This document shows, one piece after another, positions 1 to 34,962 of a stretch of 42,973 nucleotides of DNA. The notes under the pieces are model-generated. The model did no database searches, was not told the DNA's origin, and was given only the letters and a program-made list of their open reading frames with translations. The first letter of the stretch is position 1, and each line of letters begins with the position of its first letter. Source of the stretch: a virus. Its lineage: Duplodnaviria; Heunggongvirae; Uroviricota; Caudoviricetes. Made by a program: the position numbers and the translations under genes. Where the stretch lies: IMG/VR virus record IMGVR_UViG_3300011626_000001, positions 1 through 42,973 of that record; one strand, 5' to 3'.

Positions 1-309
1 TGAATTCAGGACTAAAATTTCTTCGTTTCATTGGTGCACCTATATTGTTCTGAGGTGAGCATATCACCTCTGTTCAGGTGGCCAAATTCAGTAAACCACT
101 TCAAGTACATGGATACGAGACGCGAGATGATGCAATGGTGGGCTGACTACATAGACGGAAAGGTTAGCTGAGGATTAGCAATCATTGGCTCTGCGGCTGT
201 GAGATTACTCTATATTAGAAGCGGGACCTTATAATCTTCTCCGCAAAATCATAACATTCGTTCGCACACAGCAGCACAAACAACCATAAAGTTACACACC
301 TTCATGATT

Positions 310-392: not shown

Positions 393-734
393 TCATATCG
401 TCGGCCGGTCCGGTTCTTCATCGTCGAGAATCGTCGCCGTCACTTTACCCAGCACGATGATCCTCTCCATCACATCGCCTTCCAGCGTTTCACCGTCTGG
501 CGTAATCAGCCCGGAAGAAAACAAAATCCCTATCATCGGATAGCCATCGTACTGAAACGCCACTTCATCACCTGCTTTCGCTCGTTCCGCGCTGTCCACG
601 ATGACAAAGCCATCTTGCGTCTCGATGCGGAAGCTGCTCGATGTGAAAGGCGTATAGTCCGGTTCCGCCTGGTTTAGGTCGTACGGCTCAAATGAGGCTG
701 TCACATCACGTATCCCATGTTGCGCAGCGCCCAC
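393..734 (-). CDS. Hypothetical protein (about 107-113 aa), second gene of the SOS-box operon
   Basis: ORF in track; GTG start overlaps the stop of the upstream 78-aa ORF (translational coupling); no family recognised. Confidence 0.4.
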   Translation of the reverse strand: MGAAQHGIRDVTASFEPYDLNQAEPDYTPFTSSSFRIETQDGFVIVDSAERAKAGDEVAFQYDGYPMIGILFSSGLITPDGETLEGDVMERIIVLGKVTATILDDEEPDRPTI

Positions 735-937
735 GTCTTGTTTTCCTTCACAGCGTCTATCTCAAAGAAATTCGACTGATAGCGCAGGATATACTCGTTG
801 CACTGCTCCAGCGTCCAGTGATGGTTGTACTTTGCCAGTGCCAGGCGGAACTCGTTCGTTGTCACCATCCGTCGGCTACGGCTGTCCAGTTTGATAGCGT
901 CCCGAAATGCCCAGCCAACTTCATACCCGCGCGCCAT
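701..937 (-). CDS. Hypothetical protein (78 aa), first gene of the SOS-box operon
   Basis: ORF in track; purine-rich SD (GAAGGGGGAA) before the ATG; LexA box about 20 bp upstream; no family recognised. Confidence 0.45.
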   Translation of the reverse strand: MARGYEVGWAFRDAIKLDSRSRRMVTTNEFRLALAKYNHHWTLEQCNEYILRYQSNFFEIDAVKENKTWALRNMGYVM

Positions 938-957
938 AAATTTCCCCCTTCAAAAAT

Positions 958-977
958 TACTGTATATAAACACAGTA
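958..977. promoter_or_regulatory. LexA (SOS) operator TACTGTATATAAACACAGTA overlapping a promoter
   Basis: Matches CTGT-N8-ACAG and 17 of 20 positions of the enterobacterial consensus TACTGTATATATATACAGTA; on the minus strand a TTGCCA -35-like hexamer lies 18 bp upstream. Confidence 0.6.
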
Positions 978-1127
978 ATATCGAGAGGGTTTTTTGGCAA
1001 GCCGCTGCGTTTGGGACTTTTGTAAGGAGTATGATGCGAAAGGGATTTTTTCGGAAGGTGTTGGCGTGAGCAGCTAACCTGTAGTCACTCACCCCGCAGC
1101 TTGCTGAGACAGGCGCGGTACGTAGCT

Positions 1128-1150
1128 GCCCCGTCGCCGGGGCTTTTTTA
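1128..1150 (+). terminator. Rho-independent terminator (GCCCCG-TCGC-CGGGGC + T6)
   Basis: Hairpin plus T-run on plus strand immediately beyond the tail-fibre stop; may end a short plus-strand transcript from the LexA-box promoter and/or act bidirectionally. Confidence 0.5.
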
Positions 1151-2230
1151 TCACGCGCCGGGAGTCAGTATTGCGGCTTTGATTTCGTCTATGTGCTTCA
1201 ACGCAGTATCGGGTTCTGTGAGCGCTAACTCTACCAGGCTGAAAAGCGACTTTATTGCTTCGGTGTGATAAGCCGCGGAGACCCCTGCGGTGTTGAGCGA
1301 CTTAAAGTCTTCGATAATTTTTCCGTCCGAAAACTCTCTCCGGCCAATGTTAATCACTGCTACCGGGCAAAATGACTCTACATCTTGAGCGATAAGGCCT
1401 ACCTCTGAGCCGCCATCCTGCTTGTCGTAAGTGCAACCGCGCCATGAAAGGACTGCTGCGAGCGGATTGGCTACGCATTGGATGTTGCTTTTATGCCTTT
1501 CATCAGAGCCATTAACCCAAGAACCTGGCGCGTTAGCATTGCCTGTAGAATAAAAATTCCAGTATTTGGAACCGTAACCCGCCCAGTCGAGCGTTATGAG
1601 AGCGTAAACATTCGTGCCCACTTGCTCGCCACAGCTTAGTGAGGCAAAGCCACCCTTGCTTGAAATGTTTGCCCCTCTTCCTTTCATAACTGAGCGAAAC
1701 GCTGGCGCATTGTTATATGAACCATTTGTTGCTGACGGATTTGCTGGCCCAACTACCTCTACATTGCTTGTCAGTGCGTTGAGTGCAGTAATATCGTTAT
1801 TGGAGCCAGAAGCAGCTTTGCTGTTTAGTGAGCCCGACAGGTAAAGCCATGAAGGCCCATTATATTGAGTGCCATCTGGAAGCGTGACCGTGATATTCCC
1901 TGATGAACTATACACCTGCTGCCAGTTGACCTTATCGAGATTCAGGCCGCGAATGGCTTTTGCTACATCAGCGGCCACCTGAGCGGTAATACCAACAAGA
2001 GCAGCATTTGGAACGGCTGTCCACGAAAGACCAGAAGCCGTCGGTCCGTTATAGGCTGTGATGAGCGTTACGCCGGTTGCTGAATCTACAGACTTAACGC
2101 CGAGGGTATATGTCACGCCGCCGACGATGGCGACAATAAAGTCATTCGCCTTTAACTCTGTGGTGAAGCTTGTGCCTGATCCGGCAACTGAGGTCGAATT
2201 ATTCGTGAGTGTGATAGTGCCTGCTGGCAT
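1151..2230 (-). CDS. Tail fibre protein with C-terminal intramolecular-chaperone (peptidase S74-like) domain
   Basis: G/S/T/N-rich beta-type N-terminal part; C-terminal segment with DERHKSNI and GLIAQDVE motifs typical of self-cleaving tail-fibre chaperone domains. Confidence 0.75.
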   Translation of the reverse strand: MPAGTITLTNNSTSVAGSGTSFTTELKANDFIVAIVGGVTYTLGVKSVDSATGVTLITAYNGPTASGLSWTAVPNAALVGITAQVAADVAKAIRGLNLDKVNWQQVYSSSGNITVTLPDGTQYNGPSWLYLSGSLNSKAASGSNNDITALNALTSNVEVVGPANPSATNGSYNNAPAFRSVMKGRGANISSKGGFASLSCGEQVGTNVYALITLDWAGYGSKYWNFYSTGNANAPGSWVNGSDERHKSNIQCVANPLAAVLSWRGCTYDKQDGGSEVGLIAQDVESFCPVAVINIGRREFSDGKIIEDFKSLNTAGVSAAYHTEAIKSLFSLVELALTEPDTALKHIDEIKAAILTPGA

Positions 2231-3378: not shown

Positions 3379-6050
3379 CAGTTAAGTTTCCCCGCTTTAA
3401 ACCTCTCCACGCCGTTGGCGTCATAAACAGCCAGCCCCGTTTCATTAAGTACGCTCCCTCCGGATGTACCTGAGCCTCCATATAGTTCAAAGGTGCCGTC
3501 GTTTCGCATAATCGTTCCCGATTTCCCGGCAACGTAATTTGCTGAGTACCACGACCCCACTTTAGCGAGCGTAATCGAGGCGTAGTTGATAAGCGCATCA
3601 TTGATAAACACCTGACCATTAACGGCAGTAAACGCCAGCTGGTAGCTCTGGTTAGTTGTGTTGTAAATCGCAAAGGTGTCTGCACTGAATAAGGCAAAAG
3701 ACTGCGTAGAGCCGCCATTCCCTTCAATGCCCAGCTGCATACCGGCCACATATTTCGTGCCATTCTTGTCAATCTGGACTTTTACGCCCCACTGAGCAGA
3801 CAATTTCCCGCTCAGATCAGCGTAAGCGCTGGATACCTGCTGTACTGATGAGGTGTTCTGGTCAGACTGCGCCTGAATCTGATCCATACGTTGTGCGTAG
3901 GCCGAATCATTCGTCGCGATGGTCTGCCTGACGCTGATGATATCAGCGCGGTTGCGCCCGCTAGCTTCAAACTGATGATCTACGGAAGCGTCCAGGTTAA
4001 GCGCGTTCTGGAGGATTGCATCAATACCCGTATCGATAGTGGAGCTAAGCCTGTCAAAAGCTTCTGACTTGCGTATTTGCGTGTCGATGTAATCAATCAG
4101 CTCACCAGTATCCGTGTTACACACTACGGGAACCTCAACAAACGCCGACGTTCCAAATGCGTTTATAGTCCGCACGTACCAGTAATAGGTTGGTCCAATC
4201 TTGAGCTCGTGTGCCGTCCAGTTGCTGCCAATACCTGCCCGGCTGGCATTGGCTTCCACGGTTGCCTGGGTGGTGTTTGGGAGCTTCGTTAAGCCTGACG
4301 TCCAGAAATCAAACTGCGTCGAAACATTCGTGATCTCATTGATGCGAGGAATGAGCGTTACAGCAAAATACCCCTGCTTTTGTTCAACGACAGAAGGCGG
4401 CGGCGGCGCTTCGATGCTGAATTCAAGATAGGCCTCCGGTGACTGGGCGCCCATCTGGTTTACAGCTATAACGTGTGCAGTATAAGTATCGCGCAGCAGG
4501 CCGGTCAGGCGAGTGAATGAACCAGGTACCTGAACGGAAAGAACCAGTTCCCCATCCTTGCGAATAAGAACCTGGTTATAAACATACTGACCAACGTTCT
4601 GCCATGAAAGCACGCCCTGAACTACCTGTCCGATTTCCTCAACGGTATATTTCAGGTTCTGAGGCTGAGCGACGCCTCCTGTAGGAAGTTGCGTAAATGG
4701 TGGGCGCTCAATAGGCTTGCCAATGGCATCACCCCACACCTCAGCAGTTTCCTGCTTCAGCGTCAGTTGCACACCATTCTGGACGCCAAATTTCCAGTCG
4801 GTTACCCGCATTTCAACGTCAGTAATACCGAGTGATGGAAAATTAACCTTCACGTACATGCCCGGTCGATATCGGTAGCCGCTCAGATTGAGAGTGACGT
4901 TCATCGTTCTGGAGATGCGTGTACGTTTAAGCTTAACGTCAGCCAGACGCTGCGCCTGAAATTCAGAGGTAACAAAGCGCAGTTTGAGGTCTTGTGAGAT
5001 TTCCACGCCGTCTTCTGCCACCCACTCAGAGACTGAGACGGTTGGGAAATCCACCTCGGAAAACCGCTGCATCGGGTCGATAAAGGTGCCTTTAATGGTA
5101 TTCACACGTTCTGATTGCGATACTTCAGGCATCATTTCTATGTCGCCAGCGAGCTGACTTTCGGTAATCACCTCTACAGCTGGCCCGTAATAGGCCCCGA
5201 CGAGGATGCCGTGTTTGCCAGCAATGTAGGTCGCCTCGCCTGCGCATGCTGAAAGCATGGCCTCCAGTATGCTTGCCTTATTCTCGCTCAGGTCAAATTC
5301 ACCATTAATGGTGTAACGCGGCTCCGTCTGATTACTGCTGCTTGTTACCCTTTCATCTGAAATATTTGCCGCTTCCTTGAACTGGTCCCAGTTAATGTCT
5401 GAGTCAGGCACTTTCAGGTAATTGCGGTAATAATCCAGGATGCACAGAGCGGCATTATTGCTGTAAACCGTGGCGCCGGTTCTGGGGTCATAAACCTTTT
5501 TGCCCATCTTCTCGACGGTGATGTTAGGGATACCCGCGGGGAATTTCTCCGCATCAAACTTCAGCGTCACCCTGAGCCAGCTGATGCCTTTACCAATCAT
5601 GTCCTCTTTCCATGACGGCGCGTTCTGCAGCAGGTAGGGGTCTGCAGTCTGTCGGTCGATGTGCACCTCGTAAGAGGCTTTATCGCCAAACGTAGAGATG
5701 TCATTGTCACCCAGATAAACTGCACCTACGCCAGTAATTGGATGCCCGGCAAGCGTAATTGCAAGGTGAAGAAGTTCGCCATCTGTCTGCTCTCCTGGTT
5801 GCTCCTCAGAAAAGAAAAGCGTCCCGGCAGAAAGGGATTTCCCGTAAATTACCGTCTTTGCACTGGCAGCGGCTCTCAGTACCTGCTTGCGTTCCTGAGT
5901 ATCCCTGTAACCGTTCATTGATGGTTTTTTTGTAAGGGCCTGAGAAGCAAGCTGGGCGGCTATGGTAATAACCATGGCAATGGCGTAAGCCTGATTCGCT
6001 ACAGCAATACCGCCCGCGATAGCGGCCACAACGGGAATAGCAGCAGGCAT
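3378..6050 (-). CDS. Host-specificity / central tail tip protein (J-like, 890 aa)
   Basis: Large protein directly after the minor tail proteins; N-terminal hydrophobic region and repeat-rich beta-type C-terminal region; operon position. Confidence 0.8.
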   Translation of the reverse strand: MPAAIPVVAAIAGGIAVANQAYAIAMVITIAAQLASQALTKKPSMNGYRDTQERKQVLRAAASAKTVIYGKSLSAGTLFFSEEQPGEQTDGELLHLAITLAGHPITGVGAVYLGDNDISTFGDKASYEVHIDRQTADPYLLQNAPSWKEDMIGKGISWLRVTLKFDAEKFPAGIPNITVEKMGKKVYDPRTGATVYSNNAALCILDYYRNYLKVPDSDINWDQFKEAANISDERVTSSSNQTEPRYTINGEFDLSENKASILEAMLSACAGEATYIAGKHGILVGAYYGPAVEVITESQLAGDIEMMPEVSQSERVNTIKGTFIDPMQRFSEVDFPTVSVSEWVAEDGVEISQDLKLRFVTSEFQAQRLADVKLKRTRISRTMNVTLNLSGYRYRPGMYVKVNFPSLGITDVEMRVTDWKFGVQNGVQLTLKQETAEVWGDAIGKPIERPPFTQLPTGGVAQPQNLKYTVEEIGQVVQGVLSWQNVGQYVYNQVLIRKDGELVLSVQVPGSFTRLTGLLRDTYTAHVIAVNQMGAQSPEAYLEFSIEAPPPPSVVEQKQGYFAVTLIPRINEITNVSTQFDFWTSGLTKLPNTTQATVEANASRAGIGSNWTAHELKIGPTYYWYVRTINAFGTSAFVEVPVVCNTDTGELIDYIDTQIRKSEAFDRLSSTIDTGIDAILQNALNLDASVDHQFEASGRNRADIISVRQTIATNDSAYAQRMDQIQAQSDQNTSSVQQVSSAYADLSGKLSAQWGVKVQIDKNGTKYVAGMQLGIEGNGGSTQSFALFSADTFAIYNTTNQSYQLAFTAVNGQVFINDALINYASITLAKVGSWYSANYVAGKSGTIMRNDGTFELYGGSGTSGGSVLNETGLAVYDANGVERFKAGKLN

Positions 6051-33004: not shown

Positions 33005-33646
33005 ATGACAATTGCGGCAAGGGTGCTTTCAAAAAGGACTGAGCTGGGTTTGACTCAGACAGAGCTAGCGGAAAAGGCCGGCACAACGCAGCAGGCGATT
33101 GTCCAGCTTGAGAGCGGTAAAACTAAAAGACCAAGATATCTGCCTGAGCTGGCTAAGGCGTTAAATTGCGACATCCAATGGCTTCTTGATGGATCAGGGG
33201 CAACCTTAGACAGCAATGTGTCTAACCCTAGGGACTACAAGCCGACTGCGCGCTACCCCGTTTTAAGCAAGGTTCAGGCTGGCGCATGGGATGAAGCCTG
33301 TGAACCCTATACGATTAAGGATGTCGATATGTGGCTTGAATCTGACGCACATACGCAAGGAGAGGCTTTCTGGTTGCAGGTGGAAGGCGATTCGATGACT
33401 GCCCCGATTGGCCTCAGTATTCCGGCAGGTACGTTCGTACTGTTCGACACCGGCCGTGAGGCGGTCAATGGAAGCCTGGTCGTGGCAAAGCTTACTGACG
33501 ACAATGAAGCCACATTCAAGAAGCTCATTATCGACGGCAGTCAAAAGTATCTTAAGGGCCTGAACCCTCAATGGCCGATGGTCCCGGTTAACGGGAATTG
33601 CAAGGTTCTTGGCGTGGCGATCGAGACGAAGATGAAGCTCGTTTAA
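33005..33646 (+). CDS. cI: CI-type prophage repressor (HTH + LexA-like S24 autopeptidase domain)
   Basis: N-terminal HTH; C-terminal GDSM serine motif and downstream Lys ([10 protein letters not shown]). Confidence 0.85.
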
Positions 33647-33966: not shown

Positions 33967-34962
33967 ATGGAACAACATGACGTTTTTGTGTACACAGGTG
34001 ATATCCACCGTGATGGTTATCTCGATCTTACTAATGCCATAAAAAAACGCAAAAAAGCTCAAGGACTCAGCACTGAGGTTACTTTTTGTGTCGCCACTTA
34101 TGGCGGAGATCCAAATGCAGGCTATCGTATAGGAAGAGCGCTTCAACATAACTATGAGAAAGTGAATCTTTTAGTAGTGGGCCCCTGTAAGAGTGCCGGG
34201 ACTTTGATAGCGATTGCAGCTGATAAGCTTATCATTGGAGACATGGGTGAGCTTGGCCCCCTTGATATACAGCTTAAAAAAAATGACGAAATTGGCGAGA
34301 TGAGTTCAGGCCTGGTCATAATGACGGCCTTAGATGCGTTAAAAGATCGCTCTATTTCGACGTTCAATTCTCATCTGGTTAAGATAAGATACGAAAACCA
34401 GATAAGTACGAAGATGTCAGCTGACATTGCTGCGAAGTTAACTGAGGCGTTAGTTGCTCCCATGGCTGCTCAGATAGATCCAATTAAACTTGGAGAGCAT
34501 CAACGAGCTATGAGCATTGCCATAACCTATGGGCAGCGACTCAGTGACAAATCTAAGTGTTTGAAGGATGGAGCTTTATTTAAATTAATTGCCTCTTATC
34601 CTTCACATGGTTTTGTGATAGATCGCAAAGAGGCTCGCGAACTTTTTCACCATGTTGAAAGTCCAACTGGTTACGCTGAAGCACTTTACGAGATTTTTTA
34701 TCAAAAAATTCACGAGGGTGAAATTCAACCTTACGGTAAACCGAAGGTGCTCGATTTCACTATCGATCCTGAAACAACTGAGAATAATGGAGATGCCAAT
34801 GCACAATCACCCGGAGATGGAGGTACTGAACAAGATGATTCAGGACCAAATCCAGGAGAGTCAAGATCTGGCAAAGCGAGCAGAGCAAAATCTAAACGAT
34901 CTGAAGCGTCAACTGGAGCCCTACCAGTTCAGCAGCCCAATGACATACCGCCTCCAGAGTGA
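33967..34962 (+). CDS. ClpP/S49-fold (SDH-type) serine peptidase-like protein with charged low-complexity C-terminal tail (331 aa)
   Basis: Segment GPCKSAGTLIAIAADKLIIGDMGELGPLDIQ resembles the Ser-containing core of ClpP/SppA-fold peptidases; no signal peptide; AT-rich gene. Confidence 0.55.
   Translation: MEQHDVFVYTGDIHRDGYLDLTNAIKKRKKAQGLSTEVTFCVATYGGDPNAGYRIGRALQHNYEKVNLLVVGPCKSAGTLIAIAADKLIIGDMGELGPLDIQLKKNDEIGEMSSGLVIMTALDALKDRSISTFNSHLVKIRYENQISTKMSADIAAKLTEALVAPMAAQIDPIKLGEHQRAMSIAITYGQRLSDKSKCLKDGALFKLIASYPSHGFVIDRKEARELFHHVESPTGYAEALYEIFYQKIHEGEIQPYGKPKVLDFTIDPETTENNGDANAQSPGDGGTEQDDSGPNPGESRSGKASRAKSKRSEASTGALPVQQPNDIPPPE

Follow-up and report, generated by a model that had tools for sequence, protein, structure and literature searches.

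What does a LexA-type box at the very end of a lambdoid prophage control, and what do the two small genes behind it encode? The question is raised by the IMG/VR virus record IMGVR_UViG_3300011626_000001, analysed here over its 42,973 nucleotides (the window), which is a lambdoid prophage of the Pantoea type. Beyond its tail-fibre genes, a palindrome at 958-977 stands ahead of two short minus-strand open reading frames (ORFs), which we call ORF1 and ORF2. A sequence-only reading had proposed that they form a LexA-controlled accessory operon of unrecognised family, possibly a toxin-type or induction-coupled module. The answer that we arrive at is an operon very probably under SOS control, whose second gene encodes a remote, minimal relative of the processed mutagenesis protein UmuD'. 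The features that carry this answer are the following.

958-977, no strand assigned: candidate LexA (SOS) box TACTGTATATAAACACAGTA, extending over the -10 hexamer of the minus-strand promoter and its predicted start site.
972-1000, minus strand: predicted operon promoter, with -35 TTGCCA (1000-995), a spacer of 17 base pairs (bp) and -10 TACTGT (977-972); predicted start near 965.
701-937, minus strand: ORF1, 78 amino acids, a small helical protein of phrog_3893, with the Shine-Dalgarno sequence GGGGG at 947-943.
393-734, minus strand: ORF2, 113 amino acids from the first GTG at 734, a UmuD'-like (HumD-like) S24-fold protein without the Ser/Lys dyad.

The site at 958-977 has the form CTGT-N8-ACAG, as had been noted, and matches the LexA consensus TACTGTATATATATACAGTA at 18 of 20 positions rather than the 17 first counted; a single mismatch separates it from the box of E. 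coli umuDC (TACTGTATATAAAAACAGTA). It is intergenic, with the start of ORF1 (937) on one side and the stop of the last tail-fibre gene (1151) on the other, and the plus-strand ORF that spans it (692-1069) is an antisense shadow of ORF1. Numbers from the window alone say little: CTGT-N8-ACAG occurs twice against 0.53 expected, and two or more occurrences were reached in 5 of 100 shuffles, so that a single box is not significant and, on these data, is weak evidence. To that extent the count suits the view that the palindrome arose by chance and regulates nothing.

The relatives speak against that view. The comparison drew on 16 genome loci and 80 viral contigs, with the counts made on 99 loci with an ORF2 homologue; many of the contigs are closely related, so the locus counts are not independent. 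An exact CTGT-N8-ACAG stands 20-30 nucleotides upstream of the first gene in about 89 of the 99 loci, and a box with one mismatch in 3 more; the palindrome was at this distance in all of the first four loci examined. Elsewhere in 476 kb of flanking DNA the motif occurs only about seven times. The conserved boxes comprise at least 27 distinct 20-mers with constant CTGT and ACAG arms and a variable spacer, a diversity that argues for selection on the site. Since the position is kept in about 90% of the loci although identity between the neighbouring proteins has fallen to 30-50%, we regard the comparative evidence for the box as strong and the chance match as effectively refuted by it. The palindrome thus combines an AT-rich spacer, overlap with a promoter and conservation of the site, the marks of a gammaproteobacterial LexA operator.

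The overlapping minus-strand promoter proposed earlier is present with both of its hexamers, TTGCCA and TACTGT, though they are 17 bp apart and not 18. The layout matches that of the E. coli umuDC and sulA promoters (TTGATC-17-TACTGT), in which the LexA box likewise begins at the -10 hexamer, TACTGT forming its first half; the difference lies in the -35 hexamer, TTGCCA in the window. Relatives carry TTGATC-17/18-TACTGT.

Homologues of the gene pair, at 30-47% protein identity, lie between the tail fibres and the attachment site and integrase gene (att/int) in phages of Cronobacter (phiES15), Erwinia (Midgardsormr38), Pantoea (AH07), Klebsiella, Enterobacter and E. coli (HK225, mEp390). The arrangement of box, coupled operon and position beyond the tail fibres recurs in the lambdoid phages of these hosts, which bears out the idea of an accessory operon under a LexA-type operator at the prophage end. 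In the window the two minus-strand ORFs are translationally coupled, as predicted, the first of 78 amino acids and the second of 113 or 103 according to the start chosen: an alternative GTG at 704, sharing the sequence GTGA with the ORF1 stop, yields a protein of 103 amino acids (393-704). The two genes are usually coupled in relatives, yet each is also found alone, ORF1 in HK225 and ORF2 in three other loci (L007, L017 and L020), and in several Pantoea and Lelliottia loci the box directly precedes ORF2. Across relatives, the SOS locus reads as a shuffled set of dinI, ORF1 and humD-like genes. The HK225 locus (L002, 2162-2800) has ORF1 alone, divergent from dinI across a single LexA box and followed by a DNA invertase gene.

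ORF2 can now be placed in a family, contrary to what the sequence-only reading had supposed. It matches phrog_3469 ('UmuD-like') with an E-value of 4.6e-16; its family profile, compared with the PDB, returns as top matches only UmuD (8gmt_B, E 5e-4) and UmuD' (1umu); and hhalign aligns it with E. coli UmuD at 95.3% probability (E 2.4e-8). Its AlphaFold2 model has a confident beta core over residues 23-93, with a predicted local distance difference test score (pLDDT) of about 89. The top 18 Foldseek matches of this model are C-terminal domains of LexA, CI and UmuD' with template modelling (TM) scores of 0.45-0.59, all at E >0.001. The best of them are the C-terminal domains of LexA and lambda CI together with UmuD' (TM 0.55-0.59), and the matches include S24 domains of LexA, CI and UmuD bound to RecA filaments (8gmt, 8gmu and 8gms). 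These comparisons put ORF2 in the UmuD lineage and not the repressor lineage. We also considered an origin of ORF2 as a copy of the C-terminal domain of the prophage's own CI and rejected it, there being no sequence similarity (0.06% probability).

A sequence alignment, in which ORF2 is about 23% identical to UmuD, further shows what the protein has lost. An 11-residue deletion takes out SGDSMIDGGIS, including Ser60; the column of Lys97 holds Gly in the phage family, with Ile in the next column in the window ORF2; and no Ser is invariant across the family. Distant family members, in phiES15, Midgardsormr38 and AH07, start with MGFPSPA(T/N)DY, the sequence with which UmuD' begins after the RecA-mediated cut at Cys24-Gly25. 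On this evidence we describe ORF2 as a remote homologue of UmuD' and, in all probability, a pre-processed, protease-dead, minimal version of its core.

Two phage systems offer direct comparison. In phiKO2, genes 22 and 23 (dinI and umuD homologues with a single common LexA site) occupy the same genomic slot after the tail genes and have the same kind of operator. The phiKO2 protein gp23, which begins GFPSPAADY, starts at the equivalent of UmuD Gly25, lacks the catalytic Ser and has an annotated LexA site upstream; it shares 69% identity with P1 HumD and has weak matches among members of the ORF2 family. It differs in its length of 127 amino acids, its full-length S24 core, the absence of an ORF1 before it and the divergent dinI. 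The box is directly upstream of the umuD homologue in phiKO2, whereas in the window ORF1 lies between box and ORF2, ORF2 has 103-113 amino acids with deletions of 11 and 5 residues, and a noncoding unit takes the place of dinI. P1 HumD, like ORF2, is a phage-encoded UmuD' homologue, pre-processed as ORF2 probably is; HumD reportedly takes the place of UmuD' in function, and ORF2 is far more diverged and shorter. From E. coli umuDC the operon differs in having no umuC and in a UmuD-like protein with neither a cleavable N-terminal extension nor an active site. Casjens et al. (2004) reportedly found the phiKO2 dinI/umuD pair to be regulated by LexA, and HumD is, to go by the title of its description (McLenigan et al. 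1999, J Bacteriol 181:7005), a functional UmuD'-like homologue that facilitates SOS mutagenesis. The operon of the window is a shortened, partnered variant of this SOS-regulated humD/umuD-like kind, already known from P1 and phiKO2.

The partner, ORF1, belongs to a family confined to Enterobacterales, which has 76 representative sequences in the library clustered at 50% and makes up 578 clusters in the collection at 90%. Neither a match in Pfam, NCBIfam or PADLOC nor a similarity to PDB sequences was found for it, and its AlphaFold2 model, four helices at a pLDDT of 67, is too weak to trust and has no fold match. Many family entries of 79 amino acids (P0149, P0151, P0168, P0179 and others) carry the name 'DNA polymerase V' in NCBI or UniRef. 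A UmuC fragment was accordingly one candidate for ORF1, rejected as there is no sequence similarity to UmuC. ORF2 relatives, in turn, are named 'phage repressor protein' in databases, a name supported by neither sequence nor fold. Both names are a misfit, because ORF2 lacks a protease dyad as well as a DNA-binding domain and ORF1 is not UmuC-like.

We infer LexA binding, SOS induction, binding partners and a physiological effect along the following lines. In a lysogen, host LexA would occupy the box at 958-977 and cover the -10 hexamer and the start site, keeping the operon off independently of the phage CI, and the operator/promoter layout would make this repression tight. Upon DNA damage, RecA would be activated, LexA would cleave itself, and transcription at the prophage end would bring about the coupled translation of ORF1 and ORF2. 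ORF2 would be made directly in the 'processed' form, in the manner of HumD, and, having no Ser/Lys protease dyad, would act only through binding to a partner. It could join the host network of UmuD', UmuC and activated RecA (RecA*), like P1 HumD, and alter translesion synthesis or SOS signalling during prophage induction, with ORF1 as a small helical co-factor. We hold LexA/SOS control of the operon to be very likely, and the account as a whole, with its HumD-like role for ORF2, to be reasonably probable.

Several observations weigh against the account. A generic promoter scan missed the TTGCCA-17-TACTGT promoter, because TACTGT agrees with TATAAT at only three of six positions. ORF2 stays below the threshold of Pfam Peptidase_S24 (PF00717), with no match for the window protein and an E-value of 0.11 for the best family member, and has no other match in Pfam, NCBIfam or PADLOC. 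Its S24 core is short by 11 and 5 residues and its N-terminal arm is degenerate, with only a DLNQ remnant recognisable; in this state it may no longer bind UmuC. No umuC adjoins the operon, as ORF2 is followed by the att junction and its upstream partner is not UmuC-like. For ORF1, no relatives of known function were detected. Finally, the loci with ORF1 or ORF2 alone mean that a strict two-protein complex is not required.

Some of these points suit a different role for the same protein. ORF2 might be a decoy or inhibitor that fills the groove of the RecA* filament or forms dead-end heterodimers with UmuD or UmuD', damping co-protease activity or DNA polymerase V in a DinI-like role, with ORF1 as its partner. 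The loss of the catalytic dyad and the shortening of the core fit such a role, as does the presence of RecA-filament-bound S24 domains among the fold matches; moreover, the LexA site of phiKO2 and that of HK225 each serve a divergent dinI as well, so that the locus gathers genes that modulate RecA*. Against it stands HumD, the nearest characterised relative, which according to that same title facilitates SOS mutagenesis and does not block it. The core loss and the company of dinI in other phages make this the main rival to a HumD-like ORF2, and a plausible one, although we consider it unlikely.

A LexA-controlled operon at this position could also act on the phage's own switch. Small phage genes of this kind, often beside dinI and expressed from the repressed prophage upon damage, include the LexA-controlled antirepressors Tum of phage 186, AntC of N15 and GfoA/GftA of Gifsy phages (PMC3121763). 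ORF1, or the pair, would then be an antirepressor and the operon an induction module, as had been suggested. The small size of the genes, the LexA box and the adjacency of ORF1 to dinI in HK225 recall the Gifsy and 186 antirepressors, which are small LexA-controlled proteins beside dinI (PMC3121763). The repressor of this prophage points the other way. Its cI-type gene at 33005-33646 encodes HTH_3 and Peptidase_S24 domains (E 5.7e-24), which places the protein in the self-cleaving type, directly cleavable by RecA* with no need of an antirepressor. The phages that carry those antirepressors, by contrast, have repressors without self-cleavage, and the antirepressor-dependent Gifsy repressors have no S24 cleavage signature (PMC3121763). 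Nor is a sequence relationship to the antirepressor modules apparent: ORF2 is not similar to this CI, PHROG places ORF1 outside the antirepressors, and scans of PHROG, Pfam and NCBIfam gave no antirepressor match for ORF1, antirepressor sequences themselves not having been compared directly. An induction-coupled module is, we think, improbable, and we do not retain it.

The remaining proposals concern the other side of the box, where a short plus-strand transcript with a 12-codon ORF had been envisaged. The segment between the box and the tail-fibre gene is organised as follows.

978-1150, plus strand: conserved noncoding unit of 173 bp, divergent from the operon, aligned in 43 distinct variants.
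978-1056, plus strand: 5' conserved part of the unit, with the Shine-Dalgarno-like AAGGAG and a mini-ORF at 1031-1069.
About 1057-1091, plus strand: variable stretch of the unit.
1092-1118, plus strand: 3' conserved core CCCCGCAGCTTGCTGAGACAGGCGCGG.
1128-1149, plus strand: intrinsic terminator that ends the unit, with its stem at 1128-1143 and its T-run at 1144-1149.

The 43 variants have a mean column identity of 73%, above that of the adjacent proteins (30-50%), and when viral contigs were searched with nothing but the 3' core motif, 61 of the 67 with enough flank had ORF1 and/or ORF2 upstream in divergent orientation. The terminator and the preceding 150 nucleotides or so are conserved as a unit, and the plus strand may therefore carry something functional. 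The parts envisaged earlier, namely the 12-codon ORF, the AAGGAG upstream of it and the terminator, do exist; what fails is the conservation of the ORF, and a convincing promoter is missing too. A by-eye sigma-70 search of the plus strand (-35 TTGGCA or TTGATC, -10 TAATAT or CAGATT) gave no candidate with both good hexamers and good spacing. The mini-ORF is hydrophilic, has 6 codons (M-x-x-K-G/D-F) in most relatives and 2 in some, ranges from 2 to 22 codons overall and is absent in 4 of the 43 variants; as a conserved peptide it was rejected.

These properties also bear on whether the locus is a toxin-antitoxin or toxin cargo, with the plus-strand transcript as an antitoxin RNA or the 12-codon ORF as a small toxin. 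Analogy with SOS-controlled type I systems is the sole argument for it, helped by the existence of a short, terminator-bounded plus-strand unit. The unit and the operon messenger RNA do not overlap, which makes a cis-antisense RNA impossible, a hydrophilic mini-ORF of such variable length and presence is a poor toxin, and neither ORF1 nor ORF2 has a match in Pfam, NCBIfam or PADLOC or any toxin-like feature. We judge toxin-type cargo to be very improbable and abandon the suggestion.

Other candidates for the content of the unit were examined. A 21-codon minus-strand ORF through the hairpin was rejected, its substitutions showing no bias to synonymous sites, as was a dinI remnant, for which tblastn found nothing credible. 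Rfam at permissive thresholds gave no family for the unit, only a chance snoRNA match, and RNAalifold on 8 and on 42 variants found no covariation-supported structure except the terminator. Single-sequence folding of the unit is unremarkable (z-scores of -1.2 and -0.3). By eye, a stem CCGC-A-GCYU...AGGC-GCGG can be drawn with three G-U wobbles favouring the plus strand and no compensatory change, and we do not rely on it. It is possible that the unit is a small RNA.

What relatives carry here suggests another use. In about half of them, genes for Acyl_transf_3, GtrA or family-2 glycosyltransferase proteins lie immediately behind the terminator with the same orientation; in others, such as L006, an O-antigen-modification gene of this kind lies within the unit and replaces its variable middle. 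With cargo genes behind or inside it in relatives, the unit resembles a transcribed slot for O-antigen modification, and by this comparison it looks like one that is empty in the window, where there is no cargo and the empty site extends over 1057-1150. Loci with cargo (L004, L006, L013, L057, L099 and about 20 more) have it transcribed away from the SOS operon. The acyltransferase cassette inserted in L006 has CTGCTCAGA near its 5' boundary (3595-3610), repeating part of the 3' core, CCTGCTCAGA; this repeat could be a recombination footprint or a coincidence.

The region between the two directions also varies. In most relatives (for example, L100 and L096; columns 5-24 of alignment A7), a palindromic -35 common to both directions is flanked by a pair of GATC sites spaced about 13 bp (CGATCGG...TTGATCAAG). 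The window clade has TTGGCAAG instead, with no GATC. The two-GATC palindromic -35 of the relatives resembles the Dam/OxyR phase-variable gtr promoters.

These observations can be drawn together in a broader claim, which we consider rather unlikely: either 978-1150 is a real divergent transcription unit, or ORF1 and ORF2 form a new SOS-induced modulator whose action would go beyond what is described for HumD. In the first case, a small RNA or a promoter-plus-terminator cargo slot could share the palindromic -35 region with the LexA-controlled promoter, the 3' core CCCCGCAGCCTGCTCAGA..GGCGCGG would serve either as the seed of an RNA or as a site of recombination, and surface-modification genes would have their expression linked to the SOS locus. 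In the second, the modulator could for instance be an S24 decoy without protease activity that targets RecA filaments or UmuD and so tunes prophage induction or mutagenesis.

If, as we favour, the operon is SOS-controlled and ORF2 acts in a HumD-like way, it adds to a pattern in which enteric temperate phages repeatedly place SOS-controlled genes (dinI, humD/umuD-like genes and antirepressors) at the prophage end, to be expressed from a repressed prophage upon DNA damage. The family is widespread in Enterobacterales prophages. ORF2 represents a natural minimal UmuD' core without catalytic residues, and the identity of its partner would reveal which surface of UmuD' has been worth keeping for a phage. 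The practical gain is a corrected annotation and another candidate phage modulator of SOS mutagenesis.

The position of the operon at the prophage end follows from its surroundings. On the minus strand, late and structural genes extend from about 23 kb to 1.15 kb. Two features frame the locus.

1151-2230, minus strand: last tail-fibre gene, 359 amino acids, with a Peptidase_S74 chaperone domain at the C-terminus; the stop codon lies right against the terminator hairpin.
100-171, plus strand: prophage/host junction and 3'-terminal fragment of a phage integrase gene (ending ...YMDTRREMMQWWADYIDGKVS and stop), from comparison with viral contig L023.

L023 is 100% identical to the window over 420-104, and the identity ends at about 104; it carries a complete, P4-type integrase gene of 385 amino acids, convergent with ORF2, of which 104-171 of the window is the 3' end. 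No other transcription unit thus separates the operon from the prophage/host junction, which lies at about 100-105. As the integrase gene is complete in L023, the attachment crossover should fall within the gene or at its end. A plus-strand terminator at 310-331 lies across the junction from the integrase gene in the prophage, a position like that of lambda tI/sib. Searches of phage and E. coli collections with 250-1200 gave no near-identity DNA match, and the element is not of E. coli origin.

Two further observations concern the early-left operon. Its first gene, adjoining cI (33967-34962, plus strand), encodes a protein of 331 amino acids (phrog_21683) that weakly matches ClpP-like/SDH serine proteases, which is not what one usually finds beside a repressor gene. 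The far end of this operon holds an ORF of 87 amino acids (42487-42750, plus strand; phrog_17759), which had no match in Pfam or PADLOC and none by tblastn in the phage collection. A second good LexA-type box, ATACTGTTTATGCAAACAGTAT, stands at 42454-42473, 15 nucleotides before this ORF, and the prophage therefore has two putative SOS-controlled loci.

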